Positions 12,556 through 33,263 of a DNA stretch of 64,000 bases are shown piece after piece; the first letter of the stretch is position 1, and the number at the start of each line of letters is the position of its first letter. The notes under the pieces are model-generated. The model searched no databases, was not told the origin of the DNA, and worked only from the letters and a program-made list of their open reading frames with translations. Source of the DNA: Candidatus Palauibacter sp. GTDB taxonomy: Bacteria; Gemmatimonadota; Gemmatimonadetes; Palauibacterales; Palauibacteraceae. The DNA is taken from positions 1,002,982 to 1,066,981 of the forward strand of contig NZ_CBDCUB010000001.1 of NCBI RefSeq assembly GCF_965222475.1, given 5' to 3'. Both the position numbers and the translations under genes were made by a program.

Positions 12556-13170
12556 CTAGATCAGGTAGACGATGGTGAACAGGATGATCCACACGAGATC
12601 GACGAAGTGCCAGTACAGGCCGAGCACTTCGATCCCGTGCGTATTGTCCGCGCCCCAGTGGCCTCGATGGGCGCGGATCGTGGCCCACGCCAGGCAGATG
12701 ACACCGAGCAGGACGTGGAAGCCGTGGAACCCGGTCATGGTGAAGAACGTCGCGCCGTAGAGTCCGGCGGCCGGCGTGAACCCGTGGCTGTCCTGCCATG
12801 ACGCGTGCAGGACGAGTTCGGTGTACTCGTAGACCTGCACGCCCAGGAAGAGGGCCCCCAGCAGGGTCGTCAACAGGAGGTAGAGCTTGATCCCCCTCTG
12901 ATCCCCCTCCTGCGCGGCCGCGAAAGCCTTCACCATCGTCACCGAACTGCAGATGAGGATGAAGGTATTCACGGCCGTCACGGGGACGTTCAGTACGTCC
13001 CCCGGGTTCGCCCACGTGTCGGCGGCCCCGAACCGAAGTACCACATACGAACCGATGAGGCCCGCGAAGAACATCACCTCCGAGCACAGAAACACCCACA
13101 TTCCGACTTTCTGGGTGTAGACATCGATCCCTCGTTCGGGGACTCTGCCTGCCGTCGCGGCGTGTGCCAT
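12556..13170 (-). CDS. ctaE: cytochrome c oxidase subunit III
   Basis: 204 aa; YWHFVDLVWIILF C-terminal COX3 signature. Confidence 0.85.
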   Translation of the reverse strand: MAHAATAGRVPERGIDVYTQKVGMWVFLCSEVMFFAGLIGSYVVLRFGAADTWANPGDVLNVPVTAVNTFILICSSVTMVKAFAAAQEGDQRGIKLYLLLTTLLGALFLGVQVYEYTELVLHASWQDSHGFTPAAGLYGATFFTMTGFHGFHVLLGVICLAWATIRAHRGHWGADNTHGIEVLGLYWHFVDLVWIILFTIVYLI

Positions 13171-13212: not shown

Positions 13213-14979
13213 TCAGTGGCTGTCCGGGGCGGGACTTACGACATCGGGCCGTTCATTCTGCGCCAGCCAGTCCTTGTCCTCCACATCCGGGTGGCTGTAC
13301 TCGTGCGGGCCGTGATAGACGACGGGGATCTCCTCCCAGTTGCCGTGCTTGGGCGGCGAGGGCGTCTGCCACTCCAGCGTCGTCGCGTTCCATGGGTTCG
13401 CCCCGGCTTTTTTCCCCTTCTTCAGACTCCAGAAGAAGTTGAACGCGAACAGGAAGCCGGAGGCGAAGAGTACGAACGCCGACCACGTGATGATCGCGTT
13501 CGTGTCCTCGATCCCCTGCAGGTGCGCGTAGCCGGTGGAGTCGTAGATGCGCCGCATCATCCCCACCATCCCCACGCCGTGCATGGGGAAGAAGACCAGG
13601 TTGAAGAAGACGAAGGTGAGCCAGAAGTGGATCTTGCCCAGCGTCTCGTTCATCACCCGGCCGAACATCTTCGGATACCAGAAGTAGATCGCGCCGAAGA
13701 GAGCGAACAGGCTCCCGCCGAAGAGCACATAGTGGATGTGCGCCACGATGAAGTACGTGTCGTGGATATAGATATCGACCGGTGTCGAAGCCATGAAGAC
13801 GCCCGACAGACCTCCGATCGCGAACATGGCCACGAACCCGATCGCGAACAGCATGGCCGAGTGGAGCTGGAGGTTCCCGCGCCACATCGTGCCCATCCAG
13901 TTGAACGTCTTGATCGCCGAGGGCACGGCGATGAAGAGCGTCGAAACCGTGAACGTAAGCCCCAGCATCGGGTTCATCCCGCTCTGGAACATGTGGTGGC
14001 CCCACACGATGAAGCCGAGGAAGGCGATCGAGACGAGCGCCAGCACCATCGCGTTGTAGCCGAACACCGGCTTCCGCGACCCCACCGAGAGGATCTCCGA
14101 CGTAAAACCCATCGCCGGGAGGATCAGGATGTAGACCTCCGGGTGGCCGAAGAACCAGAACAGGTGCTGCCACAGGAGCGGCTGTCCACCGCCCTCCGGG
14201 AGGAAGAAGCTCGTACCGATCGTCTGGTCGAAGATGAGCATGATCCCCGCGGCCGACAGCACCGGCATGGCGAGCAGTGCGAGAATCGCCGTGATGAACA
14301 GCGACCAGATCGTGAGCGGCATGCGCATCCAGGTCATCCCGGGCGCCCGCAGGTTGATCACCGTGGTGATGTAGTTCACCGACCCGAGAATCGACGACAG
14401 CCCGACGAAAACGAGCGCCGCCAGCCACATGGTCTGGCCCAGCGCGACGCCCGACAGGTCGGGACGCGCGCTGAGCGGCGCATAGAGCGTCCAGCCGGCC
14501 CCCGCCGCGCCCCCCACCACGAAGAAGCTGGCCAGGGTCAGGATGCCCGCCGGGACCATCGCCCAGAAGGAGAGCATGTTGAGCCGCGGGAACGCCATGT
14601 CGTGCGTCCCCAGCTGCAACGGGATGAGATAGTTCGCCCATACGCCCACGAGCATCGGCATGATGGCGAGGAAGACCATCACCGAACCGTGCATCGTGAC
14701 GAGCGAATTGTAGAACTCCGGCAGGATGTACCCGCTCGCGACCATGCTCTCGGGGAAGATCCCGCCCAGCGGCAGCTGGCCCCGCGCCGGCCACGCGATC
14801 TGGTATCGCATGAGCATCGCGAGCAGTCCGCCGATCATGAGGAAGAACAGCGTGTAGAACAGGAACTGGAGCGCGATGACCTTGTGGTCGGTCGAGAACA
14901 GGTATTTGCGCAGGAACGACTGCTCGTGCTCTTCGTGCAGGATCGCCTGCCCGGTCGCCTCCGCGATGATCGTCGCCAT
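13213..14979 (-). CDS. ctaD: cytochrome c oxidase subunit I (heme-copper oxidase catalytic subunit)
   Basis: 588 aa; GHPEVYILILP, WAHHMF, HDTYFIVAHFHY-like motifs. Confidence 0.9.
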   Translation of the reverse strand: MATIIAEATGQAILHEEHEQSFLRKYLFSTDHKVIALQFLFYTLFFLMIGGLLAMLMRYQIAWPARGQLPLGGIFPESMVASGYILPEFYNSLVTMHGSVMVFLAIMPMLVGVWANYLIPLQLGTHDMAFPRLNMLSFWAMVPAGILTLASFFVVGGAAGAGWTLYAPLSARPDLSGVALGQTMWLAALVFVGLSSILGSVNYITTVINLRAPGMTWMRMPLTIWSLFITAILALLAMPVLSAAGIMLIFDQTIGTSFFLPEGGGQPLLWQHLFWFFGHPEVYILILPAMGFTSEILSVGSRKPVFGYNAMVLALVSIAFLGFIVWGHHMFQSGMNPMLGLTFTVSTLFIAVPSAIKTFNWMGTMWRGNLQLHSAMLFAIGFVAMFAIGGLSGVFMASTPVDIYIHDTYFIVAHIHYVLFGGSLFALFGAIYFWYPKMFGRVMNETLGKIHFWLTFVFFNLVFFPMHGVGMVGMMRRIYDSTGYAHLQGIEDTNAIITWSAFVLFASGFLFAFNFFWSLKKGKKAGANPWNATTLEWQTPSPPKHGNWEEIPVVYHGPHEYSHPDVEDKDWLAQNERPDVVSPAPDSH

Positions 14980-14994: not shown

Positions 14995-15663
14995 TCACTG
15001 GGCAGACGCCTGGCCGGCCAGCCAGGCATCGAAGTCCGCCGCGCTGTGCACGGTTACGCTCGCCTGCATGTAGTAGTGGCCGAGGCCACACAACTCGGCG
15101 CACGCGATCTCGAAGTCCCCGGTCTGGGTCGCGTCGAACCACACCGGGATCGTCATGCCCGGCACCGCGTCCTGCTTCACGCGGAGTTCGGGGATGAAGA
15201 AGGAGTGGATCACATCCTCGGATTCGAGCAGGATCGTGATATCCTCGTTCACCGGGAAGTGGAACTGGTTGCGGACGGTGAAGTTGTCGTCTTCCGTCTC
15301 GATGTCCCGGTCGGCCCCCGGGTAGGTGATGTTCCACTCGAACTGCTTGCCGACGACCCGGAACTCGAGCGCGTCCTCCGGCCGGTTGGACGCCCCCTTG
15401 ATGTCCTGCCAGACCGCGGCGGAATAGGCGCCGAGGATGGCGATGATGATGGCCGGGACGATCGTCCATATGACTTCGAGCCGGTTCGAGCCGTGGGTGT
15501 AGTGCGCCCTCGCCCCCTCACGCCCGCGGTACCTGAGGCAGAACCAGAGGATGCCGCCTTCGACGAGAAGGAACGCGATCCCGGTGATGACGAGGATGAT
15601 CCAGAACAGCTGGTCGATCACGACGCCGAATGTCGAGTAGTTCGGGGGCAGCGCCCAATCCAC
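14995..15663 (-). CDS. ctaC: cytochrome c oxidase subunit II (CuA)
   Basis: CuA motif HSFFIPEL ... CAELCGLGHYYM; GTG start at 15663 preceded by GGAAGGAGA. Confidence 0.8.
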   Translation of the reverse strand: MDWALPPNYSTFGVVIDQLFWIILVITGIAFLLVEGGILWFCLRYRGREGARAHYTHGSNRLEVIWTIVPAIIIAILGAYSAAVWQDIKGASNRPEDALEFRVVGKQFEWNITYPGADRDIETEDDNFTVRNQFHFPVNEDITILLESEDVIHSFFIPELRVKQDAVPGMTIPVWFDATQTGDFEIACAELCGLGHYYMQASVTVHSAADFDAWLAGQASAQ

Positions 15664-15754
15664 GAGCTCTCTCCTTCCAGGTGAGCCTTCGGGTATCCGG
15701 GGCGGGGAGCGGGACCCGGCGGCGCGGCGGCCGTCCGGTCCCGCCCCGCTGGCG

Positions 15755-16612
15755 TTACTGCTGCGCGCGCTCGACCCGGATGCGGTTCGTGCCGTGCCCG
15801 ACGACGAGCGCGTCACCCATGGGGACATCGGCGCCCGACATCTCGGCGTTGTAGTCGAAAGAGGCCTCGGCCATCTCGCCGGCCGTGACGGTCACGCTCG
15901 CCGTCATCGTGCCGAACTCCTCGTGCCACGCCGTCAGCGTGTAGTCACCGGCCGGCACGTTCGCGATCGAGTAGCTCCCGTCGGCGCCGGTCACCGCGAA
16001 GTAGGGGTGGTCGACGACGCCGATGTACGCCTGCATCCAGCCGTGCACATCGCAGCGGACCGGCACCATCACTTCGGCCACCTGGAAACGCTGCGTGCTC
16101 GTGATCCCGGCGCGGGGCTGGCTGATGTTGAAGCCCCGGTTCTCGGTCGGCGTGGCGTTGATGTTGTGGAGCAGGTTGTCGCTGTTCGTGATCTCGATGT
16201 CCTGCCCGCTCCGGACGCCAAGCACATGCGGCGCGTAGCGGCAGTTGGACTGGTCGAGCATCGCCGCGCCCGAGGCCGCCGGGGCCGCGGAGACGCCTTC
16301 GCTCAGATACACGAACACGTTGGCCAGGCCGCCGTTGGACACGAGGACGTTCTGGGCCATGGGCCCGTCTCCGCCGTACCCCGCCGCGCAGTCCTCCTCG
16401 GCCGACATGTCGATCGGCGCCATGGTCGGGACCATGCCGCCGAAGTTCGCCATGCCCGAGATGGTTCCGACCGTGGCCGGGTCCACCGCCGCCGCGGCCG
16501 GCGCCGCTTCGTCCGCCTCGTCCTCCGACGAACCGCCGCCCCCGCCGCCGCACGCGGCCATCGCCGCGATGGCCACGAAGGCCGCTGAACGGTTCCAGAA
16601 ATGCGATCGCAT
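15755..16612 (-). CDS. lipoprotein with cupredoxin (type-1 copper) domain and C-terminal CarboxypepD_reg-like domain
   Basis: Lipobox AMAAC; plastocyanin-like P.VLGV.SG..I.ITNSD.LLHN then C-DV-H-GW-M ligand pattern; C-terminal VTGADGSYSIANVPAGDYTLTAWHEEFG. Confidence 0.5.
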   Translation of the reverse strand: MRSHFWNRSAAFVAIAAMAACGGGGGGSSEDEADEAAPAAAAVDPATVGTISGMANFGGMVPTMAPIDMSAEEDCAAGYGGDGPMAQNVLVSNGGLANVFVYLSEGVSAAPAASGAAMLDQSNCRYAPHVLGVRSGQDIEITNSDNLLHNINATPTENRGFNISQPRAGITSTQRFQVAEVMVPVRCDVHGWMQAYIGVVDHPYFAVTGADGSYSIANVPAGDYTLTAWHEEFGTMTASVTVTAGEMAEASFDYNAEMSGADVPMGDALVVGHGTNRIRVERAQQ

Positions 16613-16702: not shown

Positions 16703-17167
16703 TCACTCCCTCCCTCGATCCTGCGCCCGGCGCACGAGAACGAGACCGAAGGCCCCCGTCAAGAGCATGGCCAGCAGCGGCGTGACCACCACCGTGCTCG
16801 ACGCCGGTGGTTCGAGGAGGACGTAGTACCATGTGCTCACCGAACTGCGCTTCCCGACCTCGGCGCTCGACCCATCCCACGCCTGAAACGCGATGGGCGT
16901 GGGCAGCCCCTCCGCGAAGTCCAAACCCTCGCTCTCGACCTCGATCGGGCGGCGCAGGTACAGCGTCCAGCGGCCCTCCTCCCAGGTCGCTTCCCCGCTC
17001 ACGGGATCTTCTTCGAGCGGCTCGACCGATTCGAGTCCCCGGCCGCGGCCGGCGCCGACTCCGCCCTCGGAGTCCCACGTCCAGAGGTAGACCGGGTTCC
17101 GCGTGTCCCCCATCAGGAAGTACGGGCGCTCCGTGCCTTCGGGCGGTTCGAACGGGAACTGGAGCAT
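16703..17167 (-). CDS. EB_dh/DOMON-like heme-binding domain fragment with C-terminal TM anchor; possibly the 3' part of the upstream cytochrome c gene
   Basis: 154-aa ORF starting at an ATG that overlaps the upstream stop; together with the C-terminal ~90 aa of the upstream ORF it makes one EB_dh-sized domain. Confidence 0.45.
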   Translation of the reverse strand: MLQFPFEPPEGTERPYFLMGDTRNPVYLWTWDSEGGVGAGRGRGLESVEPLEEDPVSGEATWEEGRWTLYLRRPIEVESEGLDFAEGLPTPIAFQAWDGSSAEVGKRSSVSTWYYVLLEPPASSTVVVTPLLAMLLTGAFGLVLVRRAQDRGRE

Positions 17168-18261
17168 CAGCGCGTCCGGGGGCGCATGGTCGGCGCGCCG
17201 GCGCTGTCGAGCGCGATCGGCTTCGCCCCGTCGAGGTCCAGCGCGGCGGTGATCTTGTCCTGCCACTCGTCCCAGGCCGGATCCGGGCTCTCCGACGGGT
17301 CGTTCCACTGCACCCGCAACGCGAGGTCGCTTCCATCGTGCAGCCCCTGCACCCAGAGGCCGTCCACCGTCGGCGCGAAGTTGCGCGGCACCTGGATGAT
17401 CTGGCCCGAGAGCGGGAAGTAGAACGGCTCGACGCCTTCCCACGCCTCCTCGGAGCCATCGGCCGGGAGCCCTCCCTCGGCGCGCCCCACGCGGATCACA
17501 TCGCGCAGCTGGGGCATCTCGCCCGGGCCCATCGAGGCGATGTAGTGCGCGAGCTGCCAGACCTCGTCCGGGGACACGACGCCCGAGTTCATGGCGTCGA
17601 TCGCCGATGGCATGGGGGTTCCGTCCAGCCCGGTCAGCATCCTGGTGTGTATGTCCTCGACGCTGCCGCCGCCGTTCAGATACCATGCCTCGGTGAGGTC
17701 GGCCGCGCGAATCGGGAGACCTCGCCAGTCCTCCAGCGTCGGCGCCGAGGTCCCGTCGCCGCGTCCCGACAAGCCGTGGCATTCCTCGCACAGCATGGTG
17801 AGGTACGCCGCCGCCCCCGCCTCGAGGGCCGCGGGACCGCCGCCGGGGTCCGACCCGAAGTCCAGCGGCTCGGGCGCGGGTCCCTGGCCGAAGAACCTCG
17901 AGAAGGTCTTGAGGTAGACGATGAGGTCGTCGATTTCGCCATCGGTGAGGTTCGGCCAGCCGGGCATCGTCGTGCCGGGGAGCCCGTTCTCGATCGCGGC
18001 CCGCATGTCCGCGTCCGTCGGGAGTTGCCCGCTCCCGGTCGTCCGGACCTGGTACAGGGCCTGGGTGAAGTCGCGGGGCCGCGGCAGCATGGACTCGGCG
18101 GCCGAGCCGTCCCCCTGCCCCGTCGCGCCGTGGCATTCCGCACACCAGCGGTCGTACACGAGCTTGCCCGCGGCGGCCGCGTCTTCCTGTCCCGCCAGCG
18201 CCGTCGCGCCTCCCGCGATGCACGTCAGGAGGACGATCCCCGTGAGACGCAGCGTCCTCAT
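17167..18261 (-). CDS. dihaem c-type cytochrome with C-terminal partial EB_dh-like domain
   Basis: Signal peptide MRTLRLTGIVLLTCIAGGATALA; two CxxCH sites (CAECHG, CEECHG); ATG 18261 overlaps upstream stop (ATGA). Confidence 0.7.
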   Translation of the reverse strand: MRTLRLTGIVLLTCIAGGATALAGQEDAAAAGKLVYDRWCAECHGATGQGDGSAAESMLPRPRDFTQALYQVRTTGSGQLPTDADMRAAIENGLPGTTMPGWPNLTDGEIDDLIVYLKTFSRFFGQGPAPEPLDFGSDPGGGPAALEAGAAAYLTMLCEECHGLSGRGDGTSAPTLEDWRGLPIRAADLTEAWYLNGGGSVEDIHTRMLTGLDGTPMPSAIDAMNSGVVSPDEVWQLAHYIASMGPGEMPQLRDVIRVGRAEGGLPADGSEEAWEGVEPFYFPLSGQIIQVPRNFAPTVDGLWVQGLHDGSDLALRVQWNDPSESPDPAWDEWQDKITAALDLDGAKPIALDSAGAPTMRPRTR

Positions 18262-19055
18262 TCGTGGCCCCCTTCCCCTTCTTCCTCCCACGTCCGCGGC
18301 GTGAATCCCGACTGCTCGTAGAGGTAGAGAATGACGGCCCAGATCTCTTCTTTCTCGAGGATCGGCTCCCACGCCGGCATGGCCGAATCCCACGGCGTCC
18401 CCTCGCGCGGCAGACCGGGTCCGCCCTTCGCGATGCGCCAGAACACGAAGCTCTCCGTGAGCTGCGGGAGGGCCCCCGAACTCGTGAAGTCGGCGGGGAC
18501 CGGGTTGAAGGCGGGCGCGAAGTGCCCCTGCCCGTCGAGCAGGTCGCCGTGGCAGGGCACGCAGTTGCGGACGTAGATCGCCTTGCCGACCTGCAGGTGC
18601 TCCTCCATCGAACCCTCGGAGCGGAGCGGGTTCTCGAGGCCCGTCAGCTCCATCGACTCGCCGCGGAAGGTGATCTGGTTCGGCGGCGCCGGGTGAATGG
18701 CGCGCAGCGTGGCCGGCGCGGCGTAGCTCGGCTTCACGTTCTGGTAGGCGAGCCAGCCGACCATGACCGGGAGCGCCACCATGAGGATTCCGCGCAGCGT
18801 CTTCCGGTCCCGGGCCACCATCGTGGTGCGGATCGGTTCGCGGAAGCTCTTCCAGCGCGCCTCGTCCGCGCTCATGTAGAGGAGGATGCCGACGAGCACG
18901 ATGAGCATGTACTCGAGGATGACCGAACTCGGCACCGGCGCGCTCGGCACGCCGATCAGCGGTAGCAGGTACCCGATCCCGTAATCGAGCGCCATATAGG
19001 ACGCGACCACGACGATCACGCCCTGCCAGAACGGATGAGCCGGAAATCGTCTCAT
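18258..19055 (-). CDS. membrane-anchored monohaem c-type cytochrome (3 TM + cyt c domain)
   Basis: Three N-terminal hydrophobic helices, then CVPCHG heme-binding site. Confidence 0.7.
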   Translation of the reverse strand: MRRFPAHPFWQGVIVVVASYMALDYGIGYLLPLIGVPSAPVPSSVILEYMLIVLVGILLYMSADEARWKSFREPIRTTMVARDRKTLRGILMVALPVMVGWLAYQNVKPSYAAPATLRAIHPAPPNQITFRGESMELTGLENPLRSEGSMEEHLQVGKAIYVRNCVPCHGDLLDGQGHFAPAFNPVPADFTSSGALPQLTESFVFWRIAKGGPGLPREGTPWDSAMPAWEPILEKEEIWAVILYLYEQSGFTPRTWEEEGEGGHE

Positions 19056-19912
19056 CGGCTCCCTCCCGTGCTGTCGGCCGGTGCCGCCGCACTGTCCGCC
19101 GCCGCGTCCGGGGTCTCACCCGTACCCTCCGCGGGGGCGGCAGCCCCTCCCGTCGCCAGGAAGTTCACCAGAGCGTCGAGTTCCGCGGGTGCCATCATCT
19201 GAGCCAGCGTCGGCGACATGGTACCGGCAAAGTCCCGGTATTCTTCGTTGATGCTCGCGTTCGGGTCGACGATGCTCTCCCGGATGAACGCGGGATCCCG
19301 GCCCTGCAGGTCCTCCAACGGCGGCGCGACCATCCCGCCCTGCCCGCCCAGGGCGTGGCAGGCGAGGCAACCCGTCATGGTGATCACCGCCATCACATCC
19401 ACCTGGCTCGGGTCCGTCACGACCGGCGCCGCGGGCGCCGCCGCGGCCGCGTCGTCGGCGGCCAGCGCGGCGGCGAAGTCGTCCGCGTTCACGGTGATCT
19501 CGCCCCCCTGCGCCTCCAGGAAGGCGACGAGCGTCCACAGCTCCGCCTGCGACAGGATCCGGCTCTGGTCGAGCATGATGGGCTCGAAGCCCTCCACGAT
19601 GTAGGAAAGCGGGCTGACGAGCGACTCCCACAGGTAGTCCTTGCAGCTCTGCCCCGGGACGCGCGTCTCGCACACCGTCCCCGCCACCCCGACGATGTCC
19701 GGGGCGCGGGTGCCGAGCCCGTGACACGCCGTGCAGCCGCCGACCCCGGCGTAGATGTCCTCGCCGATGGCCGCCAGTTCTTCGGGCGGCATGTCCGCGC
19801 TGAGCACGATCTCCTCGGGCACCGCCGACTGCACCTGCGGGATCACGTTCGCCACGAAGGTGAACACCGCCAGCGTCGCCACGACCGTGAACAGGATCTT
19901 CAGGTTCGTCAT
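19052..19912 (-). CDS. dihaem c-type cytochrome (signal-anchored)
   Basis: CTACHG and CLACHA motifs; N-terminal TM/signal MTNLKILFTVVATLAVFTFVANV. Confidence 0.7.
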   Translation of the reverse strand: MTNLKILFTVVATLAVFTFVANVIPQVQSAVPEEIVLSADMPPEELAAIGEDIYAGVGGCTACHGLGTRAPDIVGVAGTVCETRVPGQSCKDYLWESLVSPLSYIVEGFEPIMLDQSRILSQAELWTLVAFLEAQGGEITVNADDFAAALAADDAAAAAPAAPVVTDPSQVDVMAVITMTGCLACHALGGQGGMVAPPLEDLQGRDPAFIRESIVDPNASINEEYRDFAGTMSPTLAQMMAPAELDALVNFLATGGAAAPAEGTGETPDAAADSAAAPADSTGGSR

Positions 19913-21685
19913 CTATCCTCGCCTGTCCTGGTAGACCGACCGTTCGGCCAGCCCGCCGAGCCAGAAGATGAACCCGACGAGCGCGAAGAAGATGATCACG
20001 CAGATGCTGATCATCGTCGCCGCCGGGCCGAGCGCCGGCGTGAACGCCTGCTCGCTCGTGTCGCGGATGACCTCGTAGACGTGCCAGTGCTGCCGGATCC
20101 CGCTGCGGGCGAAGCCCATGAGCCCCATGAGCCAGGTGAACGTCACGGCGAGGATGAGCAGCGCGTACTGCGACCGCTCGGGCATCTGCCCCCAGCGGAT
20201 CTCGCCGCGGGACTTCGCGCCGCGGAGCATCGCCATGTCGAGGCCGATCACGAACAGGATCGTCGCCAGCACCGCCAGGACCTGGTAGACCGAGAACCCG
20301 ATGCGGACGATCGCGGTCACGAAGTAGCCGTACACGCCGTAGAAGACGACCACGATCGCGGCGACCGCGAAGGCCGCGCCCTGCAGCATGGTTCCGGCGC
20401 GCACCCATGGCACCACCGGATCCTTGTTCGCCCGCCGGTACATCAGAAACGACAGGAACGTCGTCAGGATCATCAGGTTCACGGCGGTGTTCTTGGCGCT
20501 CATCACGCCCAGCACCTGCAGGAAGGGGTGCCGGATCCCGCCCATGGCCGCGATCTCGTCGCGGTCGGCGATCATCGTGTTGGGCGTGGCCCACACGATC
20601 ACGCCGAGGACGAGCACGAGGAGCATCCACTTGATGTAGGGCTGGAAGCGCTCCGCGCCCGGGATCCTCCCCATCCCGACCCACAGGTAGTAGTTGCCGG
20701 CGAGGAAGAGGATGCCGATGAGGAAGGCCTGGATGATCCAGAGCCAGCTCATGAAGCCGCCCATCATCGTGATCCCCATCTGCTGGCTGAACTCGTAGAT
20801 CTCGCGGCCGAGGTAGTATCCGGCGAAGGGGAGGACGATGAGAGCGCCGATCGCGATCAGGTTGCCGGTGTAGCCCATCCAGTCGTAGTGGGCCCGCTCC
20901 TCGTCGGTCTTGCTCGTGAGGAACCGGTACGCCGCATAGGCGCCGACGATCGCGCCGCCGAAGACGACGTTGGCCAGGAGCCGGTGGATGTTGATCGGCA
21001 TCCAGGTCGCGTTGTTGATCGCGCTCCACAGCTGGACGGTCTGCGGCGCCGTGTCCACCGTGAGATCGGCCGGAGGGCTCATCATGTAGGTGAGCCAGCC
21101 GTTCGCGATGAACATGACGATCGTGCCCCACACGTTGAGCATGATCCCCAGGCACCAGTGGGCCTTCTTCGCCGCGCCCTTCTTCCACGCGTCCCAGCCG
21201 TAGTAGTACAGGTAGAGCGTGAAGGACTCGAGGAAGAACATGCCCGCGTACACCCACATCGACGGGGCGAAGACGGCCGTCAGGTACGCCCAGAAGCGCG
21301 GATAGAGGGTCGAGAGGAAGAAGACGAGGACCGCGCCCCAGATCGCCGTCGCGCTGTACGCCACGAGCAGGAGGCGGGTGAACTCCTTGGCGAGTTTGTC
21401 GTACTTCTCGTCGCCGCCGAACATCCCGATCGCCTCGATGACGACGGCGAACATCGGCACGCCGAGCACGAAGGCCGCGAACAGCAGGTGGAGCTGGGCC
21501 GCGATCCAGACCGCGCCGCGACGGTCGAGGCCCAGAAAGCTGAACTCGCCGTAGTCGGGCCCCGCGGCCTGCGCCAGCAGCGGCATCGCCACCACCAGCG
21601 CGAGGGCGGCGAGCACCGCGCCGCGGGTCATCCAGCGGAGCGGCCCGCGATCTCCCGCGAGCCTTCCGGACCGGTCGAGCGTCAT
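19913..21685 (-). CDS. cytochrome bd-family subunit I-like protein (CydA-like, no Q-loop, no CydB partner seen)
   Basis: N-terminus aligns to CydA helix 1 (HLLFAAFVLGVPMFAVVIEAIGMF vs MYHFLFVPLTLGMAFLLAIME); FFLESFTLYLYYYGWD vs CydA FFLESTFVGLFFFGWD; C-terminal G.RQ.W..EV vs GRQPW; ATG 21685 preceded by GGAGAGAAG. Confidence 0.65.
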   Translation of the reverse strand: MTLDRSGRLAGDRGPLRWMTRGAVLAALALVVAMPLLAQAAGPDYGEFSFLGLDRRGAVWIAAQLHLLFAAFVLGVPMFAVVIEAIGMFGGDEKYDKLAKEFTRLLLVAYSATAIWGAVLVFFLSTLYPRFWAYLTAVFAPSMWVYAGMFFLESFTLYLYYYGWDAWKKGAAKKAHWCLGIMLNVWGTIVMFIANGWLTYMMSPPADLTVDTAPQTVQLWSAINNATWMPINIHRLLANVVFGGAIVGAYAAYRFLTSKTDEERAHYDWMGYTGNLIAIGALIVLPFAGYYLGREIYEFSQQMGITMMGGFMSWLWIIQAFLIGILFLAGNYYLWVGMGRIPGAERFQPYIKWMLLVLVLGVIVWATPNTMIADRDEIAAMGGIRHPFLQVLGVMSAKNTAVNLMILTTFLSFLMYRRANKDPVVPWVRAGTMLQGAAFAVAAIVVVFYGVYGYFVTAIVRIGFSVYQVLAVLATILFVIGLDMAMLRGAKSRGEIRWGQMPERSQYALLILAVTFTWLMGLMGFARSGIRQHWHVYEVIRDTSEQAFTPALGPAATMISICVIIFFALVGFIFWLGGLAERSVYQDRRG

Positions 21686-23094
21686 CGCTTCTCTCCTCGC
21701 CCCACGCCCCGCCGCCTCCGGGCGAAGAAGGGCATTCGCTTGGAGAAGTCCACCGGCATGGCGCGGCGGACCTCCTGCATCACATCGAGCGTCACTTCGG
21801 CGTGGCCGTGCTCGCGGGCGAACGTCTCGACCCGCTCCGCCACGACCCCGCGCACGAAACTCGGGATGGCGTTCAGCCGCGCCTCGGCGTCCGGACTCCA
21901 GCGGAGACGGACCTCGGCGGCGGAACCATACGTGACCTCGCGAGGCGGCTGGAGGGCTTCGGCGACCCCGGGGGCCGGCTCGTAGGCGCAGGCCGGATCG
22001 GGGCCGAGGAAGTCGCCGTCCACCGCGTAGGCGCGCGCCCGGCAGCCGCCGCACAGCGTCCGGTATTCGCAGCGCCCGCACTTGCCGCCCAGTTCCCCCT
22101 CGCGCAGGAGGCGAAACACGGTCGCCTCGCGCCAGATTTCCCGGAAGGAGGTTGTCGCGAGATCCCCCGCCACCTCCGGCATGTAGGGGCAGGGCGTCAC
22201 CTTCCCCTCGGGCGTGATGCGGCAGTACTGCACGCCGCACGGGCAGCGGGTCCGGTAGTTGAGCAGCGGGGACTCCGGGTCGCGCTCGTACACGTGGCGC
22301 ATGAGCTGCGGCTGGCACTTCGAGCGGATCATGAGCCGACCCCGGTACTCGCGCTGGAGTTCGGCGAGCCGGGCCACGAGTTCGTCGTTCTCCCCGGGCG
22401 CGAGGCCGCGCATCCCTTCGCCCCGGCCGGTCTCGACGAGGAAGTAGACGTTGAGGCAGACCGCGCCACGGTCGTCCGCCCACGCCGCCATGGCGTCGAG
22501 TTCGTGGCGGTTCCCGCGCGTGACCGTGAACTGGATGAGGAAATCGAGCCCGTGCGCCCCCAGCCGGTCGACGGCGGCGAGCGTGTCCTCGAGCGCGCCC
22601 TCCCCGTGCCGGAAGCGGTCGTGATAGCGCGGATCGAGGGAGTCGACGCTCAGCGCCACCCCCTGCACCCCCGCGTCCATGAGGGACCGGATGCGCTCAT
22701 CGGTGAGCCCGGTCCCGTTCGTCCCCACGGTCACGGTCGCACCGCGCTCCGAGGCATGGGCCGCGATCTCCTCGAGGTCGGAGCGGACGAGCGGCTCTCC
22801 TCCGCTGAGGATGAGGAGAGGAGACGGGTTCACCTCGAGGATCTGATCGATGATGGCGCGGCAGGCGGAGGTGTCGAGTTCGTTCTCGGCTTGATGCCAG
22901 GCACCGGCCGAGATGTAGCAGTGGGCGCAGGCGAGGTTGCAGCGGCGCGTGAGGTTCCAGGCGATGACGTGCGGCAGCGCGGCATCCGGTCCGTCGTGGG
23001 GAGAGGCGGCGGCCGGAGCCCCCGCCCACAGGGCCCCCGGCGCAGCGGAAGGACGTTGCGCCACAGCTTCCGCGCCCCGCAACGCCTCGATCAC
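21682..23094 (-). CDS. radical SAM/SPASM protein of the NirJ/AhbC/AhbD tetrapyrrole-modifying family, with C-terminal PCP_red-like domain
   Basis: IAWNLTRRCNLACAHCY (CxxxCxxC), LSGGEPL, TNGT, C-terminal Cys-rich SPASM region CGRCEY..CGGCRARA, ending PDPACAYEP like NirJ; extra C-terminal domain EVRLRWSPDAEARLNAIPSFVRG.V...VE.FARE.G. GTG start at 23094 overlaps upstream stop (GTGA). Confidence 0.7.
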   Translation of the reverse strand: MIEALRGAEAVAQRPSAAPGALWAGAPAAASPHDGPDAALPHVIAWNLTRRCNLACAHCYISAGAWHQAENELDTSACRAIIDQILEVNPSPLLILSGGEPLVRSDLEEIAAHASERGATVTVGTNGTGLTDERIRSLMDAGVQGVALSVDSLDPRYHDRFRHGEGALEDTLAAVDRLGAHGLDFLIQFTVTRGNRHELDAMAAWADDRGAVCLNVYFLVETGRGEGMRGLAPGENDELVARLAELQREYRGRLMIRSKCQPQLMRHVYERDPESPLLNYRTRCPCGVQYCRITPEGKVTPCPYMPEVAGDLATTSFREIWREATVFRLLREGELGGKCGRCEYRTLCGGCRARAYAVDGDFLGPDPACAYEPAPGVAEALQPPREVTYGSAAEVRLRWSPDAEARLNAIPSFVRGVVAERVETFAREHGHAEVTLDVMQEVRRAMPVDFSKRMPFFARRRRGVGRGEKR

Positions 23095-25280
23095 GCCTCG
23101 CGCGACCCCGGTTCCGAATCCTGTGCCGCGAACTTCTCCACGGCGGCCTGTGCCTCCTCGGGGGAGACCAGCTTGAAGTCGACGGGACAGTCCGCCGCCT
23201 GTTGCTCGATGTCGCGGATCGGACAGCGCGTGACGCCGGAGGCCTTCGCCTCCTCGATGAAGCGCTTCATCTCCTCGCTCATCCCGTCCACGCCGGCGGC
23301 TTCGGCCCGGGCCTGTTTCGCCTTCAGCTCGTTGAACATCACGAGCATCGTGTCGAGATCGAACTCGTCCGCCGCGATCATGGCGTCCTTGTTCTCGTCC
23401 ATGACCGGCGTCGTGACGCGCCACATCTCCTGATCGCGGGCGAAGCGTTCGACCGTATTGCGCGCGAGGGGTCGCGCGATGAGCGGCACGCGGCCGAGGC
23501 GTTCGAACGCCTCGCGGGTCCACACGATCGGGTCCGCCGCAGTGCGATCGCGCGGGATCCGGTTGTCCGTGACGGGGCACTTCGCCATCACCGGCAGCGG
23601 CGCATCGAAGACATCGTCGTCGCTCGTTTCGACGACCGTCCGCTTCATCGCCTCGCCGGCCTTGACCTCCGCGAGGGCGAGTTCCTCCGCGTCTCCGATC
23701 CCCATCACGAGCTGCATGTGGGTCGGCAGGAGCTTCTTGATCGCCTCGTCCAGCCGCTCGTTCGTGACGACGGGCAGTTGATCCCGGTTCCAGAGTTCGG
23801 GCTTCGCCCCGTTCGGATCCCCGCCGTTCGCGGCGTCCACGACATCCGATATCGACGGGGCCGCGCCTCCGGCCAGGGCCTCGCGGGCCACCTTCGCGGT
23901 CCCTTTCGCCTCCGTGCGGTATCCCTTCTCATCCTTCGGGTTCGGCACGAACGCCGCGGCGTAGCGGCTCCCGGGCCCGTAGTGCTCGAGGACGAACTCC
24001 TCGACGGCCTTGCGCGCGATCCCGAGCGCGAAGGGCGGCACGCGCAGGATCCTGACCTCGGCCTCGGGCGCCCACTCGAGCCCGGCCTCGCCGTCCTCCT
24101 CGATCCACGGGATCTCCTCGGGCCGTACGTTCTCCGTCCCGATGAGGAGGATGTTCGCATCCGCGAGGTGGACGAGGTTGTCGGCCTGCGAGCCGATGTC
24201 CGTGCCTTCGATCCGGTGCGATCCGTGGCGGGCGATGATGAGCAGCGACGGGTCGATCTCCTCCGCCCACTTCAGCATCACGTCGAAGGGCTTCCCGATG
24301 AGGACCTGGGTCTCGACCTCGACATCGGGATGTTCGCTCGCCATCACCTCGGCCCGCTTGATGTTCGCCTTGCAGAGGCGGAGCAGGCCCTTGTCGATGA
24401 TGTTGTTATGCAGCTCTTCCTGTTCCTCGAACTTGAACACCTTCGAGGCCTGCACCGAGAGCACGTCCTTGATGTTGTGGAACACGACGTGGTGGTACTG
24501 GACGTCGAAGGCGCTCCCGATGTAGAGCTTCGCCCCGTATTTCCGCGCCATCTCGAGCGCGATCCGCAGCCCCTTGTAGGCGTAGGCCGAGCCGTCCACG
24601 CCGATGAGCCACTTCCCGCCCTCGAGGGGTCGGTCGTTGCGGACGATGAGCGCGTCCTTCCGGAGGCCCCGCAGCGCCCGGGCCACGACGCCGCCGAGCC
24701 GACTGCGCTCCTGGCGGCCGAGGCCGTGGGCCCCGATGGCCACGAGGTCGTAGTCGCGGCCGGAGGTCCCCGCGAGCTTGTCCTCCTGCTCCTCGTCCTC
24801 CGCCACGAGACGGCCGTTCTCGCCCAGACGGACGTCGGCGCGCTGCTTCTCGCTCCCGTCGTAGTTGTGGGCGATGTTGGGATCGAACCCGATCAGGCTC
24901 GGGAGGCGTCCGCCGCCCCGGTTCGCCTCATTGATGATCTCCTCGTAGTTGATCCCCTCGAGGAGCTGCCGGGTGATGGTGACCCCCGCCTCGCTGCAGC
25001 GCCGGTGCAGCTGGTCGAGGAAGCTGTCGGAGATGAGCTGGAGCCCCTTCTCGATCAGCTTGTCGTGGATCTTCCGCTGTCGGCGGATCTCGGCCGGTTC
25101 CTGGAACTGGGCCGGGAGCCCGATCTCGAGCTGGCGAAAGCGGATGTCGTGCAGGCGCGCAGCGTAGACGTGTGAGCCCGTGATCCGGCCCTCCGAACGG
25201 GCGCAGATCTCTATGGCCCGGTCCACGGCCCAGTCGGACTCGCGCGAATTGTCGACCGGGACGAACAGTTCTCGATACAT
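23091..25280 (-). CDS. tandem universal-stress-protein (UspA) domains + C-terminal PCP_red-like domain protein
   Basis: Two Usp-like alpha/beta ATP-binding-type modules; C-terminal IVWTREAFERLGRVPLIARPLARNTVERFAR PCP_red-like; start preferred at ATG 25280 (GGAG 5 nt upstream) rather than GTG 25316. Confidence 0.6.
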   Translation of the reverse strand: MYRELFVPVDNSRESDWAVDRAIEICARSEGRITGSHVYAARLHDIRFRQLEIGLPAQFQEPAEIRRQRKIHDKLIEKGLQLISDSFLDQLHRRCSEAGVTITRQLLEGINYEEIINEANRGGGRLPSLIGFDPNIAHNYDGSEKQRADVRLGENGRLVAEDEEQEDKLAGTSGRDYDLVAIGAHGLGRQERSRLGGVVARALRGLRKDALIVRNDRPLEGGKWLIGVDGSAYAYKGLRIALEMARKYGAKLYIGSAFDVQYHHVVFHNIKDVLSVQASKVFKFEEQEELHNNIIDKGLLRLCKANIKRAEVMASEHPDVEVETQVLIGKPFDVMLKWAEEIDPSLLIIARHGSHRIEGTDIGSQADNLVHLADANILLIGTENVRPEEIPWIEEDGEAGLEWAPEAEVRILRVPPFALGIARKAVEEFVLEHYGPGSRYAAAFVPNPKDEKGYRTEAKGTAKVAREALAGGAAPSISDVVDAANGGDPNGAKPELWNRDQLPVVTNERLDEAIKKLLPTHMQLVMGIGDAEELALAEVKAGEAMKRTVVETSDDDVFDAPLPVMAKCPVTDNRIPRDRTAADPIVWTREAFERLGRVPLIARPLARNTVERFARDQEMWRVTTPVMDENKDAMIAADEFDLDTMLVMFNELKAKQARAEAAGVDGMSEEMKRFIEEAKASGVTRCPIRDIEQQAADCPVDFKLVSPEEAQAAVEKFAAQDSEPGSREA

Positions 25281-25542: not shown

Positions 25543-26250
25543 TCACGGAGTCCGGGGCCAGCGAAGACGGCGACTCCAGATGGTCGGGAAGGCCGCCGCG
25601 CCGAGCGTGACCACGAGCACGACGAGGAGGCTCCGAACCCACGCAGACGGGTCCGCGGGAGCCGCCCCCACGCCGGCGCCGAGGGCCGCCCGCAGGGGCA
25701 TGTAGGGATTCCAGGCGGCCGCGATCTCGTTCCAGCCCGGAACCGGCGTTCTGAAGAAGCCCGCGAGGTGGAGGAGGAGCAGGGAGAGCGCGGCGGAAGC
25801 GAGGGCCGCCTCGGCCAGCGAGCGGACGGCGGCGGCGACGAGGGGGCCGATGAGGTTCGCGAACCAGAGCGCGACGAGGGTGGCGATGAGAACGACGGGC
25901 CCGGCCCCGAGCCCGCCGGCGGACCAGAGCAGCACGAGCAGCACCGGCAGGAGTTGCGCCGTGTCGATGGCGGTGCGCGCCAGCGTACGCTCGAGGAGCC
26001 AGCGGGGCGCGGGGTAGCCGGCGCGCAGCACTTCGTCGAGCCAGCCGTCGCGCGCATCCCGGACGGCCGGAATCGCCGAGCCGAACGCGCCGAAGAAAAC
26101 GAGGAAGACGCCGAATACGGCGACCCGGTGCGGAGCGGCGGCCTCGCTGAGGGCGACCGGCGTGAGCAGGACGAGCGGGACCGCGATGTTCCACGCGAGG
26201 AGCCGTCGCCGCCGGAGGGCCGAGCGCCACGCGAGACGCCAGACCGTCAC
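25543..26250 (-). CDS. ABC-2 permease, CcmB-like (heme exporter protein B family)
   Basis: 6 TM; CcmB signature VRDARDGWLDEVL (compare E. coli FRDDLQDGSLEQL); GTG 26250 overlaps ATPase stop. Confidence 0.55.
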   Translation of the reverse strand: MTVWRLAWRSALRRRRLLAWNIAVPLVLLTPVALSEAAAPHRVAVFGVFLVFFGAFGSAIPAVRDARDGWLDEVLRAGYPAPRWLLERTLARTAIDTAQLLPVLLVLLWSAGGLGAGPVVLIATLVALWFANLIGPLVAAAVRSLAEAALASAALSLLLLHLAGFFRTPVPGWNEIAAAWNPYMPLRAALGAGVGAAPADPSAWVRSLLVVLVVTLGAAAFPTIWSRRLRWPRTP

Positions 26251-27245
26251 GCGCCCTCCTCCTCGAGCCGCCGGCCCGCGAGGATGAGGAACGCGTCGGC
26301 GAGGGTCGGTTCGCGGACATCGACCGACGTCACGGAAGCGCCCCCTCGAAGGACCCAGGTGAGGGCCTCGGGGAGCACGGTGCGCGGGTCCTCGACCTCG
26401 AGGATCACGGCGCCCTCGCGCCACGCCGCCGAGAGGACGCCGGACGGAGGCGGGGGGCATGTCTCGACGTCCGGGAGGGTGGAACCCGCGAAACGGATCT
26501 CCACGCGGGGACGGACGCCGACCCGCTGGAGGAGGCGGGCCGGCGTGTCCACCGCCTCGCACCGACCATCGACGATGAACCCCACCCGGTCGCAGTGCGC
26601 CGCCGCGAAGGCGGGGTCGTGCGCGGAAAGCACGGTGGTACGGCCCATCTCGCCCTGACCGGCGAGGGCCTCTGCGAGGAGGGCGCGGCCGGCGGGGTCG
26701 AGTCCGGCCAGCGGCTCGTCGAGCAGCAGGAGCCGCGCCTCGGCGGCGAAGGCGACCGCGAGCGCGAGCCGCCGCCGCATCCCGCTGGAGTAGGCGCCGG
26801 CCGGCCGTTCCGCGTCCCCCGCCAGTCCGAAGCGCGCAAGCCAGGTCGTGGCCTCGGCGCGGGCCTGCACAGGCGAGGCGCCCCGCAACTCGAGCAGGAC
26901 GGCCGCGTTTTCGCGCCCGGTGAGCCAGGGGCGGAAGACCGGCTGGTCCGGCACGAACCAGCGGTCGAGGGTGCCGTCGACCTCCCGCGCGAGGCGGAGA
27001 CCGGGCGCACCGTCCCCGGCCAGGAGCCGGAGGAAGGTCGATTTTCCCGACCCGTTGGGCCCGAGGAGTCCGAGTCGTTCACCGTCGCGTACCTCGAGCG
27101 AGAGGCCGCGGAGCGCGGGACTCCCATCCGGATAGGTCCAGGCGAGGGCCTCTGCGGCGACGAGCGGGTGACCCCCGCGCGGGCCGCGAGTTTCCGCGCC
27201 CTCAGCGGGGTCGGGCCCGGCGCGGGCGGGCCGGCTGCGGTTCAC
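26247..27245 (-). CDS. ABC transporter ATP-binding protein, CcmA-like with ~120-aa C-terminal extension
   Basis: Walker A GPNGSGKST, signature YSSGMRRRL, Walker B LLLLDEP. Confidence 0.7.
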   Translation of the reverse strand: MNRSRPARAGPDPAEGAETRGPRGGHPLVAAEALAWTYPDGSPALRGLSLEVRDGERLGLLGPNGSGKSTFLRLLAGDGAPGLRLAREVDGTLDRWFVPDQPVFRPWLTGRENAAVLLELRGASPVQARAEATTWLARFGLAGDAERPAGAYSSGMRRRLALAVAFAAEARLLLLDEPLAGLDPAGRALLAEALAGQGEMGRTTVLSAHDPAFAAAHCDRVGFIVDGRCEAVDTPARLLQRVGVRPRVEIRFAGSTLPDVETCPPPPSGVLSAAWREGAVILEVEDPRTVLPEALTWVLRGGASVTSVDVREPTLADAFLILAGRRLEEEGA

Positions 27246-27514
27246 GGGATGATCTCGACTCCGTCCTCCCAGACGGTGATCGCATCGACCGGGCAGGACG
27301 CGCAGGCTTCCACGAAGCGCTTTCTCGACGCGTGCTCGGGCGTCGTGAACACCGCCACACCGTCCTCGTCGAGATCGAACGCCTCCGGGGCCTCCTCTAT
27401 GCAGTCACCGAACCCCACACACAGATCCCGGTCGATGACGGCGCGCAGGCCGTGCACCTCGCGTTCGACCATCGGGTCCGTCACCGTTTCTCCGCCCTCC
27501 GCCGTCATCGCCAT
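27242..27514 (-). CDS. small ferredoxin (single [3Fe-4S]/[4Fe-4S] type)
   Basis: 90 aa; ID.D.C.GFGDC...AP..F.....G ... CASCPVDAI pattern. Confidence 0.65.
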   Translation of the reverse strand: MAMTAEGGETVTDPMVEREVHGLRAVIDRDLCVGFGDCIEEAPEAFDLDEDGVAVFTTPEHASRKRFVEACASCPVDAITVWEDGVEIIP

Positions 27515-27520
27515 GGGCCG

Positions 27521-27961
27521 CTACATCCCCTCCAGTCCGAGATCCGTGCGCGCCCGATCCATGACGGCCGGCGTCATCTCCTCGATCCCCCGTTCCCGTG
27601 CATATTCCGTGTAGATCTTCTTCACCATTCCGCGTACGAACGAAGGCACGTGCCCGAGGCGCTCGACCGCGTCCACGCTCCAGCGGACGGTCGAGGGACG
27701 GGTCGGGAGTGGCGACTCGAACGCCTCGTCTCGTCCCGATGCCACGCCGGTTCGGACCCCCTCGAGGTTCGCCTCCGGCACGGTCCGGCCGCCGACCTTC
27801 ACGCCGAGCGAACTCACGAGCTGCGTCTCCATCGGATTGGCCAGCATCGCGGTCTTCCGGCCGCAGGCAGGACAGCGGAACACGGCGGCCATCGTGCCAT
27901 CGCCGGGCACGGCCCGCTCCTCGAAGCTCATCTGCCGGTCGCAGTCGACGCAGAGGAACTT
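27521..27961 (-). CDS. zinc-ribbon + PCP_red-like domain protein
   Basis: N-terminal C..C...C..C (CVDCD ... CPACG); C-terminal TVRWSVDAVERLGHVPSFVRGMVKKIYTEYARERGIEE matches the PCP_red-like domains of the radical SAM and USP proteins. Confidence 0.5.
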   Translation of the reverse strand, partial: KFLCVDCDRQMSFEERAVPGDGTMAAVFRCPACGRKTAMLANPMETQLVSSLGVKVGGRTVPEANLEGVRTGVASGRDEAFESPLPTRPSTVRWSVDAVERLGHVPSFVRGMVKKIYTEYARERGIEEMTPAVMDRARTDLGLEGM

Positions 27962-33261: not shown

Positions 33262-33263
33262 GA

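Follow-up and report, generated by a model that had tools for sequence, protein, structure and literature searches.

A probable OR-N2-type cytochrome bd-like module joined to an aa3-type oxidase operon in Candidatus Palauibacter (Gemmatimonadota)

The cytochrome bd superfamily has been divided into the families qOR, OR-C and OR-N (Murali et al., 2021; bioRxiv 10.1101/2021.01.16.426971). OR-C enzymes are defined by CxxCH haem c sites inside subunit I and by about eight helices; they also possess a C-terminal periplasmic haem c extension and occur as paired a and b copies (bioRxiv 10.1101/2021.01.16.426971). The operons of the OR-N2 group are described as containing "multiple cytochromes c plus an EbdC homologue" (bioRxiv 10.1101/2021.01.16.426971). 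In this study, we analyzed a stretch of 64,000 nucleotides (hereafter the window) from Candidatus Palauibacter sp., a member of the Gemmatimonadota (NCBI RefSeq assembly GCF_965222475.1, contig NZ_CBDCUB010000001.1, positions 1,002,982 to 1,066,981 of the forward strand). On the minus strand of the window, a gene encoding a CydA homologue (hereafter the bd-like gene) is followed by the genes of three c-type cytochromes, named here c1, c2 and c3EB, and by those of an aa3-type oxidase. An earlier reading made from the sequence alone (hereafter the sequence-only reading) had regarded the bd-like protein as an orphan of the OR-C branch.

The role of the so-called bd-like oxidase has been a question ever since the first Nitrospira genome appeared; it has been proposed to be the terminal oxidase of major nitrifiers, and also a complex III acting in reverse. 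In Nitrospira moscoviensis, its genes are found in the "bd-like_3/alt_NxrC_2" cluster, of which a duplicate lies nearby (PMC6606698). The same cluster is present in Nitrospina gracilis, Kuenenia and Nitrospira defluvii (PMC3578206). The bd-like protein has 14 helices; its N-terminal part can be aligned with CydA, and the ligands of haem b are conserved there (PMC3578206). Membrane helices replace the Q-loop, and all quinol-binding residues are lost in this family (PMC3578206). The enzyme was proposed to act like alternative complex III in reverse (Lucker et al., 2013; PMC3578206), and OR-N enzymes have also been taken as cytochrome-c-oxidising O2 reductases (PMC10839748).

Assignment of the bd-like protein within the superfamily

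Signature residues, architecture, operon content and pairwise identities together place the bd-like protein of Candidatus Palauibacter in the OR-N2 group, where it is very probably the haem-binding membrane core of a "cytochrome bd-like" complex. Its homology with CydA is far above chance and is confined to the N-terminal part (residues ~58–300). The Pfam family Cyt_bd_oxida_I (PF01654) matched residues 61–306 only, with an E-value of 2e-22 and 79.8 bits against a cut-off of 26.2. The solved CydA chains matched residues 62–299 of the single sequence (E = 4e-8), and a family profile of the bd-like protein matched the equivalent N-terminal region of these chains with an E-value of 9e-14. The CydA motifs QLHLLFAAF, FFLESFTLYLYYYGWD and GIRQHWHVYEV, which the sequence-only reading had pointed out, are all present.

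An AlphaFold model built on 63 homologues had a predicted local distance difference test score (pLDDT) of 79.5 and a predicted template modelling score of 0.80. When this model was compared with the PDB by Foldseek, the ten best matches were all CydA chains (E = 3e-7 to 1e-4). Transporters and other folds first appeared at an E-value of about 0.04; a transporter-like fold was therefore rejected. The model contains 14 long helices, in agreement with hydropathy. Positive charges are concentrated in every second loop, indicating a topology with both termini inside and with the short C-terminal tail in the cytoplasm. The model helices and the loop charges together place His66, His234, His386, Met395 and Trp534/His535 close to the periplasmic face and put Glu153 and His176 towards the cytoplasmic side, an arrangement shared with bd oxidases. 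None of the extramembrane loops is longer than ~27 residues. No Q-loop was found, as the sequence-only reading had stated: the helices that flank its position are joined by only 13 residues (300–312), after which extra helices follow, and the homology to solved CydA ends at about residue 300. No CxxCH motif was found in the bd-like protein either, and its 590 residues include only two cysteines.

Alignment of the haem-ligating positions, a check that the sequence-only reading had suggested, showed that His19, Glu107, His126, His186 and Met393 of E. coli CydA are kept as His66, Glu153, His176, His234 and Met395, respectively, and His66 aligned to His19/His21 of the CydA chains. Glu99 and Glu445 are replaced by Tyr146 and Ser528, respectively. 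In the solved structures of E. coli bd-I, these two glutamates are located at the d/b595 site. In an alignment of 63 sequences, H66, E84, Y146, E153, Y160, H176, H234, R235, H386, M395, K398, N399, S528, R531, H535 and E538 were invariant across Gemmatimonadota and Nitrospirota.

The signature of the OR-N2 reference TKS59798.1 comprises H99, Y183, E190, Y197, Y199, H213, H269, M430/N434, S563 and W569 (bioRxiv 10.1101/2021.01.16.426971). The corresponding residues of the bd-like protein are H66, Y146, E153, Y160, Y162, H176, H234, M395/N399, S528 and W534. The offsets between reference and bd-like protein are 33 for the first residue, 37 for the next five and 35 for the last five; the spacing of the signature is kept apart from two small changes in loop length. 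All signature residues except Y162 were invariant or nearly so in the 63 Gemmatimonadota and Nitrospirota sequences. Thus, the CydA-type N-terminal helices with the His19 ligand, the lack of a Q-loop, the 14 helices and the signature residues are all those of OR-N2. The operon content also agrees, as c1, c2 and c3EB lie directly downstream and are found in the same order in one Nitrospirota locus. Finally, the bd-like protein is 46 and 40% identical to two Nitrospirota paralogues, compared with 35% to a distant clade lacking the Glu.

Membership of the OR-C branch, as put forward by the sequence-only reading, is very improbable. It is consistent with the lack of a Q-loop and of cydB, with the c-type cytochromes in the neighbourhood and with the C-terminal CxxCH fusions of a few relatives. 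However, the bd-like protein lacks both a CxxCH motif and a haem c domain at a periplasmic C-terminus, has 14 rather than about eight helices, and is present as a single copy instead of an a/b pair; moreover, Glu99, which OR-C enzymes keep, is replaced. The OR-C family was ruled out by the absence of a haem c site in subunit I together with the number of helices. The broader idea of the sequence-only reading, a member of the bd superfamily without Q-loop and CydB that stands among c-type cytochromes, holds true.

Three relatives that are 50–56% identical to the bd-like protein (P0122, P0124 and P0135) are 784–889 amino acid residues long and have one or two C-terminal CxxCH motifs. Thus, haem c in subunit I is not a clean divider between OR-C and OR-N.

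Public databases label the bd-like protein "cytochrome ubiquinol oxidase subunit I", and entries 98–99% identical to it carry the name Candidatus Palauibacter (phylum Gemmatimonadota). That it is an ordinary quinol-oxidising bd oxidase whose cydB and Q-loop were lost through errors of assembly or annotation is nevertheless scarcely credible. The same gene and neighbours recur in an independent contig (L003) and in about 80 species-level genomes, which led us to reject a mis-assembly with a lost cydB. Moreover, the family is 76–99% conserved among the Gemmatimonadota proteins listed. The Q-loop is missing from the bd-like protein, in which Glu99 and Glu445 are replaced. A canonical qOR (CydAB) was rejected: there is no Q-loop with quinol residues, no Glu99 or Glu445, and no adjacent cydB among the called genes within 10 kb and the window open reading frames tested. 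OR-N1 was rejected as well, as this group needs Gly at the position of Glu107 together with petA, petB and petD, whereas Glu153 is found here and the operon holds no Rieske or cytochrome b genes. Membership of alternative complex III was also excluded, because neither ActB (the molybdopterin-like Fe-S subunit) nor the NrfD-like ActC/ActF is encoded in the operon; an analogous function is unaffected by this result.

The claim of the sequence-only reading that cydB is not adjacent was borne out. The Cyt_bd_oxida_II family had no match among the called genes within 10 kb on either side on L003, and none among the membrane-rich open reading frames of the 64-kb window that were tested. In addition to oxidase subunits and one unassigned 7-helix protein, the other membrane-rich frames encode complex I/Mrp-type antiporter subunits, an MlaE permease and a TLC-type transporter fusion. 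Searching the window by tblastn with the bd-like protein, two distant relatives and E. coli CydA (the last used only as a probe) did not identify a second CydA-like gene in the 64 kb. The sequence-only reading had also allowed for a cydB emerging immediately adjacent in a corrected assembly together with an identifiable Q-loop; neither is present, and the neighbours are the same in L003.

The four-gene module, its neighbours and its distribution

The G+C content of the window is ~70%, and mechanically called open reading frames overlap heavily. The bd-like gene has an ATG at 21685 with GAGGAGAG just before it, and its stop codon is at 19913–19915. Although its mechanical reading frame extends on to 22483, third-position G+C changes frame at ~21650–21700, near this ATG, and L003, which is 99.87% identical to the window in DNA sequence, carries a called bd-like gene whose 590-residue product has an identical sequence. 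Thus, the gene starts at 21685, and the 590-residue membrane protein of the sequence-only reading is real and was correctly delimited, on the minus strand. By third-position G+C in each frame, coding on the minus strand is unbroken between ~25.3 and ~11.3 kb. The end of the radical SAM gene that lies upstream and the start of the bd-like gene overlap by 4 nucleotides, the bd-like stop abuts the c1 start, and overlaps of 4 nucleotides are found at c1/c2 and at c2/c3EB. The sequence-only reading was therefore correct about the coupling of the bd-like gene, both to the radical SAM gene before it and to the genes of three c-type cytochromes that follow. Scans for promoters and terminators over 9.5–26 kb gave counts at chance level and were uninformative on the operon limits.

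The products of c1, c2 and c3EB, which possess two, one and two CxxCH motifs, respectively, together would hold five c haems and likely one b haem. A c1 homologue is found in the same position in about 75 loci. The N-terminal region of c2 shows two hydropathy segments in a crude scan and up to three by eye. c3EB begins with a signal peptide, its dihaem domain matched 6h5l_B (E = 1e-46), and it also matched TIGR03477, the haem b subunit of type II DMSO reductases (E = 3e-24). The structure 6H5L is a Kuenenia HAO, and we take its chain B to be the dihaem partner of this anammox HAO-like enzyme. In the window, c3EB is split into 17167–18261 and 16703–17167 by a net loss of 1 nucleotide at 17180–17187, where the window reads ATGCGCCCCC and L003 reads GCAAGGCCGCC. 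The gene is a single open reading frame in L003 (519 residues) and in a more distant relative (486 residues). The split stems either from an error in sequencing or assembly or from a frameshift peculiar to this strain; thus, of the three coupled c-type genes of the sequence-only reading, the third is frameshifted in the window.

The gene downstream of the module encodes a lipoprotein, named here Y. The ligands H149, C187, H190 and M193 (His/Cys-x2-His-x2-Met) were conserved in at least 95% of 60 homologues of Y, in which Pfam recognises only the CarboxypepD_reg-like domain. From this ligand pattern, Y is likely a blue-copper electron carrier to CuA. The genes of the aa3-type oxidase follow Y. 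The mechanical coxB frame (14995–15828) carries an N-terminal extension of 55 Arg/Ser/Gly-rich residues that is not protein-like, and the gene call of L003 starts at 15663 (222 residues). Hence, the bd-like protein is no orphan, as the sequence-only reading had called it, but the product of the first gene of a conserved four-gene module that stands in one string with a complete aa3-type oxidase.

Upstream of the bd-like gene lies a cassette of genes with PCP_red domains and a radical SAM enzyme. The best NCBIfam matches of the radical SAM enzyme were NirJ2 and AhbD (both E ~5e-82), each with 276 bits against trusted cut-offs of 500 bits. Among solved structures, only general SPASM enzymes (PqqE and SkfB) and the C-terminus of BchB matched. 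Relatives of this enzyme keep the three-domain architecture of radical SAM, SPASM and PCP_red at 65–96% identity, and some of them are named "AdoMet-dependent heme synthase" by JGI. A tetrapyrrole-modifying role is therefore a reasonable interpretation of these family matches. The sequence-only reading was right about a radical SAM gene upstream; the modification of haem, which it had asserted, is plausible only, given scores below the cut-offs.

Table 1. Coordinates in the window of the bd-like gene and of the genes upstream and downstream of it.
Feature	Position	Strand	Remarks
Mrp/NBP35-type (MrpORP/ApbC-like) Fe-S cluster carrier ATPase	27961–28857	minus	
Small PCP_red-domain protein	27521–27964	minus	147 aa
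Small 4Fe-4S ferredoxin	27242–27514	minus	
ABC-2 type exporter	25543–27245	minus	ATPase 26247–27245, permease 25543–26250
Protein with two Usp and two PCP_red stretches	23091–25280	minus	729 aa, L003 gene call
Radical SAM/SPASM enzyme, AhbD/NirJ clade, C-terminal PCP_red domain	21682–23094	minus	470 aa
bd-like CydA homologue, probably OR-N2-type	19913–21685	minus	590 aa, 14 predicted helices, no Q-loop, no CxxCH
c1, membrane-anchored dihaem cytochrome c	19052–19912	minus	286 aa, CxxCH at residues 60 and 182
c2, hydrophobic N-terminal region and monohaem cytochrome c domain	18258–19055	minus	265 aa
c3EB, dihaem cytochrome c, EbdC/NxrC-like haem b domain and C-terminal membrane anchor	16703–18261	minus	
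Y, lipoprotein with cupredoxin-type ligand pattern and CarboxypepD_reg-like beta-sandwich	15755–16612	minus	
CoxB, haem-copper oxidase subunit II	14995–15663	minus	CuA motif, no cytochrome c domain
CoxA, A-family haem-copper oxidase subunit I	13213–14979	minus	COX1, E = 3e-150
CoxC, oxidase subunit III	12556–13170	minus	
CoxD, prokaryotic oxidase subunit IV	12213–12518	minus	
UbiA-family prenyltransferase in CtaB (haem O synthase) position	11273–12193	minus	CtaB assignment inferred from position

A scan of one genome per species with an 11-sequence alignment identified at least 595 relatives, of which the best 80 loci were kept, and the proteins of the window were compared with all of these by tblastn. 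The kept loci were almost all from Gemmatimonadota, with only a few from outside this phylum (L076, L079–83 and L084–88). In every Gemmatimonadota locus long enough, the four-gene module has the cassette upstream and Y with the oxidase downstream. The gene order is Mrp-like ATPase, small PCP_red protein, ferredoxin, ABC-2 exporter (frequent, not constant), Usp-PCP_red protein and radical SAM-PCP_red enzyme, followed by bd-like, c1, c2, c3EB, Y, CoxB, CoxA, CoxC and CoxD. The order from the bd-like gene through c1, c2, c3EB and Y to CoxBAC is conserved in about 60 Gemmatimonadota loci and in four loci of Rokubacteria (L079, L080, L082 and L083); in the latter, the module is followed by Y and the oxidase, and the cassette is not within 10 kb. 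In L080, the only Rokubacteria locus inspected upstream, the string is flanked by housekeeping genes of the opposite strand and hence appears to begin with the bd-like gene. In the NC10/CSP1-5 locus L076, the cassette is upstream of the module in a different gene order, and Y and the oxidase are absent. The Thermoanaerobaculia locus L086 (Acidobacteriota) has the cassette downstream of the module, and Y and the oxidase are absent from the contig.

The three Nitrospirota loci (L084, L085 and L088) contain neither the cassette nor Y and the oxidase. One each has the bd-like gene alone, the four-gene module, and the bd-like gene next to an NxrA-like gene. The module is found in L085, where four consecutive genes encode a 644-residue bd-like protein, a dihaem cytochrome c, a membrane monohaem cytochrome c and a dihaem cytochrome c with an EB_dh domain. 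The identities of the Candidatus Palauibacter proteins with these were, in order, 46% (over the full length), 22, 38 and 32%. L085 also has a second bd-like copy a few genes away, which is the arrangement of the N. moscoviensis cluster and its duplicate. Searching with a representative of 40% identity returned proteins named from Nitrospiria, Nitrospira tepida and Nitrospira sp. Kam-Ns4a.

The cassette accompanies the module in Gemmatimonadota, NC10/CSP1-5 and Thermoanaerobaculia (including L076, L086 and L087) in three gene orders, and was absent beside the module in the Rokubacteria and Nitrospirota loci examined. Because it is kept without the oxidase in L076 and L086, the cassette tracks the module, not the oxidase, and the link to the oxidase is a feature of Gemmatimonadota and Rokubacteria. 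In the paper that defined the superfamily, neither radical SAM genes nor a connection with haem-copper oxidases are mentioned (bioRxiv 10.1101/2021.01.16.426971), and a literature search for "bd-like" together with Gemmatimonadota found no paper.

Possible functions of the module and of the cassette

We tentatively favour a mechanism in which the module is an O2 reductase fed by cytochrome c. Electrons would arrive on the periplasmic side through the five c haems, probably one EbdC-like b haem and possibly lipoprotein Y. Their point of entry near the outer face would be a low-spin haem of the b558 type, with His234 and Met395 as ligands, from which they would pass to a second haem ligated by His66 (the position of E. 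coli His19), where O2 would be reduced. Glu153 and His176, which are retained (E. coli Glu107 and His126), would lead protons to this site from the cytoplasm. With the Q-loop replaced by extra transmembrane helices, quinol cannot donate directly at the canonical site. The active site cannot be the standard b595/d pair, because of Tyr146 and Ser528; it may hold only two haems, or may use His386 and His535, which are invariant in the family. The reduction at the His66 haem would consume protons, and O2 would be its obvious substrate. In that case, the module and the aa3-type oxidase would be two branches at the end of the chain, both supplied by the same membrane-bound cytochromes. The O2-reductase reading draws on three cultivated Nitrospirales, Nitrospira lenta BS10, Ca. 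N. nitrosa COMA1 and Nitrospira sp. Kam-Ns4a, which reportedly possess neither a canonical bd nor a cbb3 oxidase in addition to the OR-N type (PMC12342949).

Several observations weigh against such an O2 reductase. Anammox bacteria, which are strict anaerobes, possess the same module (PMC3578206). It would be unusual for one operon to encode two terminal oxidases, whereas operons joining complex III and IV are common; such co-location has been noted for alternative complex III (PMC12342949). OR-N2 is thought to be paired with OR-N1 in Nitrospirales, and the window has no second CydA-like gene. Reviews from 2024 to 2025 regard the subunit composition and function of OR-N as unconfirmed, none having been purified or assayed (PMC12342949, PMC10839748). 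In addition, the model is poor (pLDDT <50) at residues ~530–547, which hold Trp534 and His535 and directly follow Ser528, and both Glu99 and Glu445 have been substituted.

The main alternative, which we consider less likely, is that the module is no oxidase but transfers electrons from quinol to cytochrome c (or to a cupredoxin), and so resembles alternative complex III in function. Menaquinol would be oxidised at a new site of the bd-like protein, and the aa3 oxidase of the same operon would receive the electrons by way of c1, c2, c3EB and Y; nitrite oxidisers and anammox bacteria would use the module in the opposite direction. The conserved order of module, Y and CoxBAC and the string of L080 that appears to start at the bd-like gene are in line with this alternative, given how often the genes of complexes III and IV are co-located. 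CoxB lacks a cytochrome c domain and hence needs donors such as the module cytochromes. In Nitrospirales, the module stands beside an electron source, NxrA, and it is also found in anaerobic anammox bacteria; a role like that of alternative complex III has been proposed for it (Lucker et al., 2013; PMC3578206). Among 326 Gemmatimonadota genomes, petB was found in 23% and alternative complex III in <10%, compared with 82% for coxA and 74% for an oxidase reported as caa3-type, and the authors suggested an unrecognised complex III (PMC9426454). However, the low count of alternative complex III is a KEGG annotation that its authors themselves doubt, admitting that the complex may be missed (PMC9426454). 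In bd oxidases, b558 is the haem that accepts electrons from quinol, and its ligands are still present here, but the residues of the canonical quinol site are all absent and no alternative site was identified. Glu153 and His176 on the cytoplasmic side would suit a proton-consuming reduction rather than quinol oxidation. In solved structures of bd oxidases, all three haems are close to the outer face, which also counts against this alternative.

It is more doubtful still that the module is a haem complex linked to cytochrome c with another job, either as a sink for nitric oxide, hydrogen peroxide or another oxidant, or as a non-catalytic membrane dock and electron hub for periplasmic enzymes. 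EbdC/NxrC-like subunits are the membrane and electron partners of periplasmic molybdoenzymes, the module adjoins NXR genes in Nitrospirota, and the dihaem domain of c3EB is homologous to the redox partner of the anammox HAO-like enzyme, all of which would fit such a role. Canonical bd oxidases also have detoxifying roles (PMC10839748), and the module is present in anaerobes. However, the Gemmatimonadota operon holds no gene of a periplasmic dehydrogenase or reductase, and the haem ligands and channel residues are strictly invariant in two phyla, which speaks for catalysis at a haem. On balance, the cytochrome-c-fed O2 reductase is the reading that we provisionally keep.

With regard to the cassette, its radical SAM enzyme could simply be an anaerobic haem b synthase; that it accompanies the module in three phyla speaks against this. 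Since it is the module, not the oxidase, that the cassette accompanies in three phyla and three gene orders, it is conceivable, as a speculation to which we give little weight, that the radical SAM enzyme, the Usp-PCP_red and small PCP_red proteins, the Mrp-like carrier, the ferredoxin and the ABC-2 exporter make a special tetrapyrrole for the bd-like protein without O2. The Tyr146/Ser528 site would then hold a haem type not yet described in respiratory enzymes, and the complex, rather than being a second oxidase, could provide the step from menaquinol to cytochrome c that is missing before the aa3 oxidase in Gemmatimonadota.

Flanking genes and comparison with described systems

A conserved protein of 318 residues with about seven helices is encoded at 10022–10978 (minus strand), just after the ctaB-like gene. 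Checked as a hidden CydB-like partner, it had no match in Pfam, NCBIfam or the PDB; it may be an unrecognised oxidase assembly factor. Further downstream, a 1071-residue protein (6135–9350, minus strand) combines a TLC ATP/ADP-transporter-like domain with HEAT repeats and a cyclic-nucleotide-binding domain, which is an unusual fusion. On the other side, hemC (porphobilinogen deaminase; 29817–30776) is followed by three complex-I/Mrp-type antiporter-like subunits confirmed by Pfam (31260–36208), beyond which smaller membrane open reading frames reach 37573. L003 has an HmuY-like gene between hemC and the cassette. The hemC and HmuY-like genes indicate that the respiratory island is flanked by haem-related genes.

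KEGG annotation assigned cydA to 173 and cydB to 95 of 326 Gemmatimonadota genomes (PMC9426454 supplement). Orphan bd-like genes probably account for much of this excess. As they are annotated as subunit I of a quinol oxidase, the reported frequency of bd quinol oxidases in Gemmatimonadota is probably inflated.

Compared with canonical CydA of E. coli bd-I and bd-II, Geobacillus and Mycobacterium, the first five helices of the bd-like protein are alike in fold and sequence. It differs from them in having 14 instead of 9 helices, c-type cytochromes as partners and neither Q-loop nor CydB. Similar to the OR-C enzymes of Desulfobacterota and others, the bd-like protein has no quinol site and cytochrome c is its presumed donor; the haem c in subunit I, the ~8 helices and the a/b pairs of OR-C, however, have no counterpart here. 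In both this locus and that of alternative complex III with the caa3 oxidase of Flavobacterium johnsoniae, a membrane complex with multiple c haems is encoded directly upstream of an A-family oxidase. The two complexes are not homologous (the Foldseek match to 6btm_C was not significant, E = 0.22), and the resemblance would be functional only and hypothetical. The match of the radical SAM enzyme to AhbD (haem b synthase) and NirJ/NirJ2 (haem d1 biosynthesis) spans the whole radical SAM/SPASM core. Different from these, it has an additional C-terminal PCP_red domain of the BchB C-terminal type and is always found alongside a Usp-PCP_red protein, a small PCP_red protein and an Mrp-like ATPase.

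The closest likeness is to the OR-N2 "bd-like oxidase" (NIDE0901-like; bd-like_3/alt_NxrC_2 of N. moscoviensis), with which the bd-like protein shares its helices, the signature, the replacement of the Q-loop and the four-gene module. Different from the OR-N2 systems of Nitrospira, Nitrospina and Kuenenia, the host is a heterotrophic member of the Gemmatimonadota, and neither NXR nor an OR-N1 partner is encoded nearby, which makes for a simpler genetic setting. While the module and the bd-like family were already known, the linkage to an aa3-type oxidase and the company of radical SAM and PCP_red genes are added here. Compared with the Nitrospirota OR-N2 loci, the module of Candidatus Palauibacter is thus joined to an aa3-type oxidase operon and preceded by a haem-type radical SAM/PCP_red cassette, a setting that yields two testable alternatives, a second oxidase or the missing complex III.

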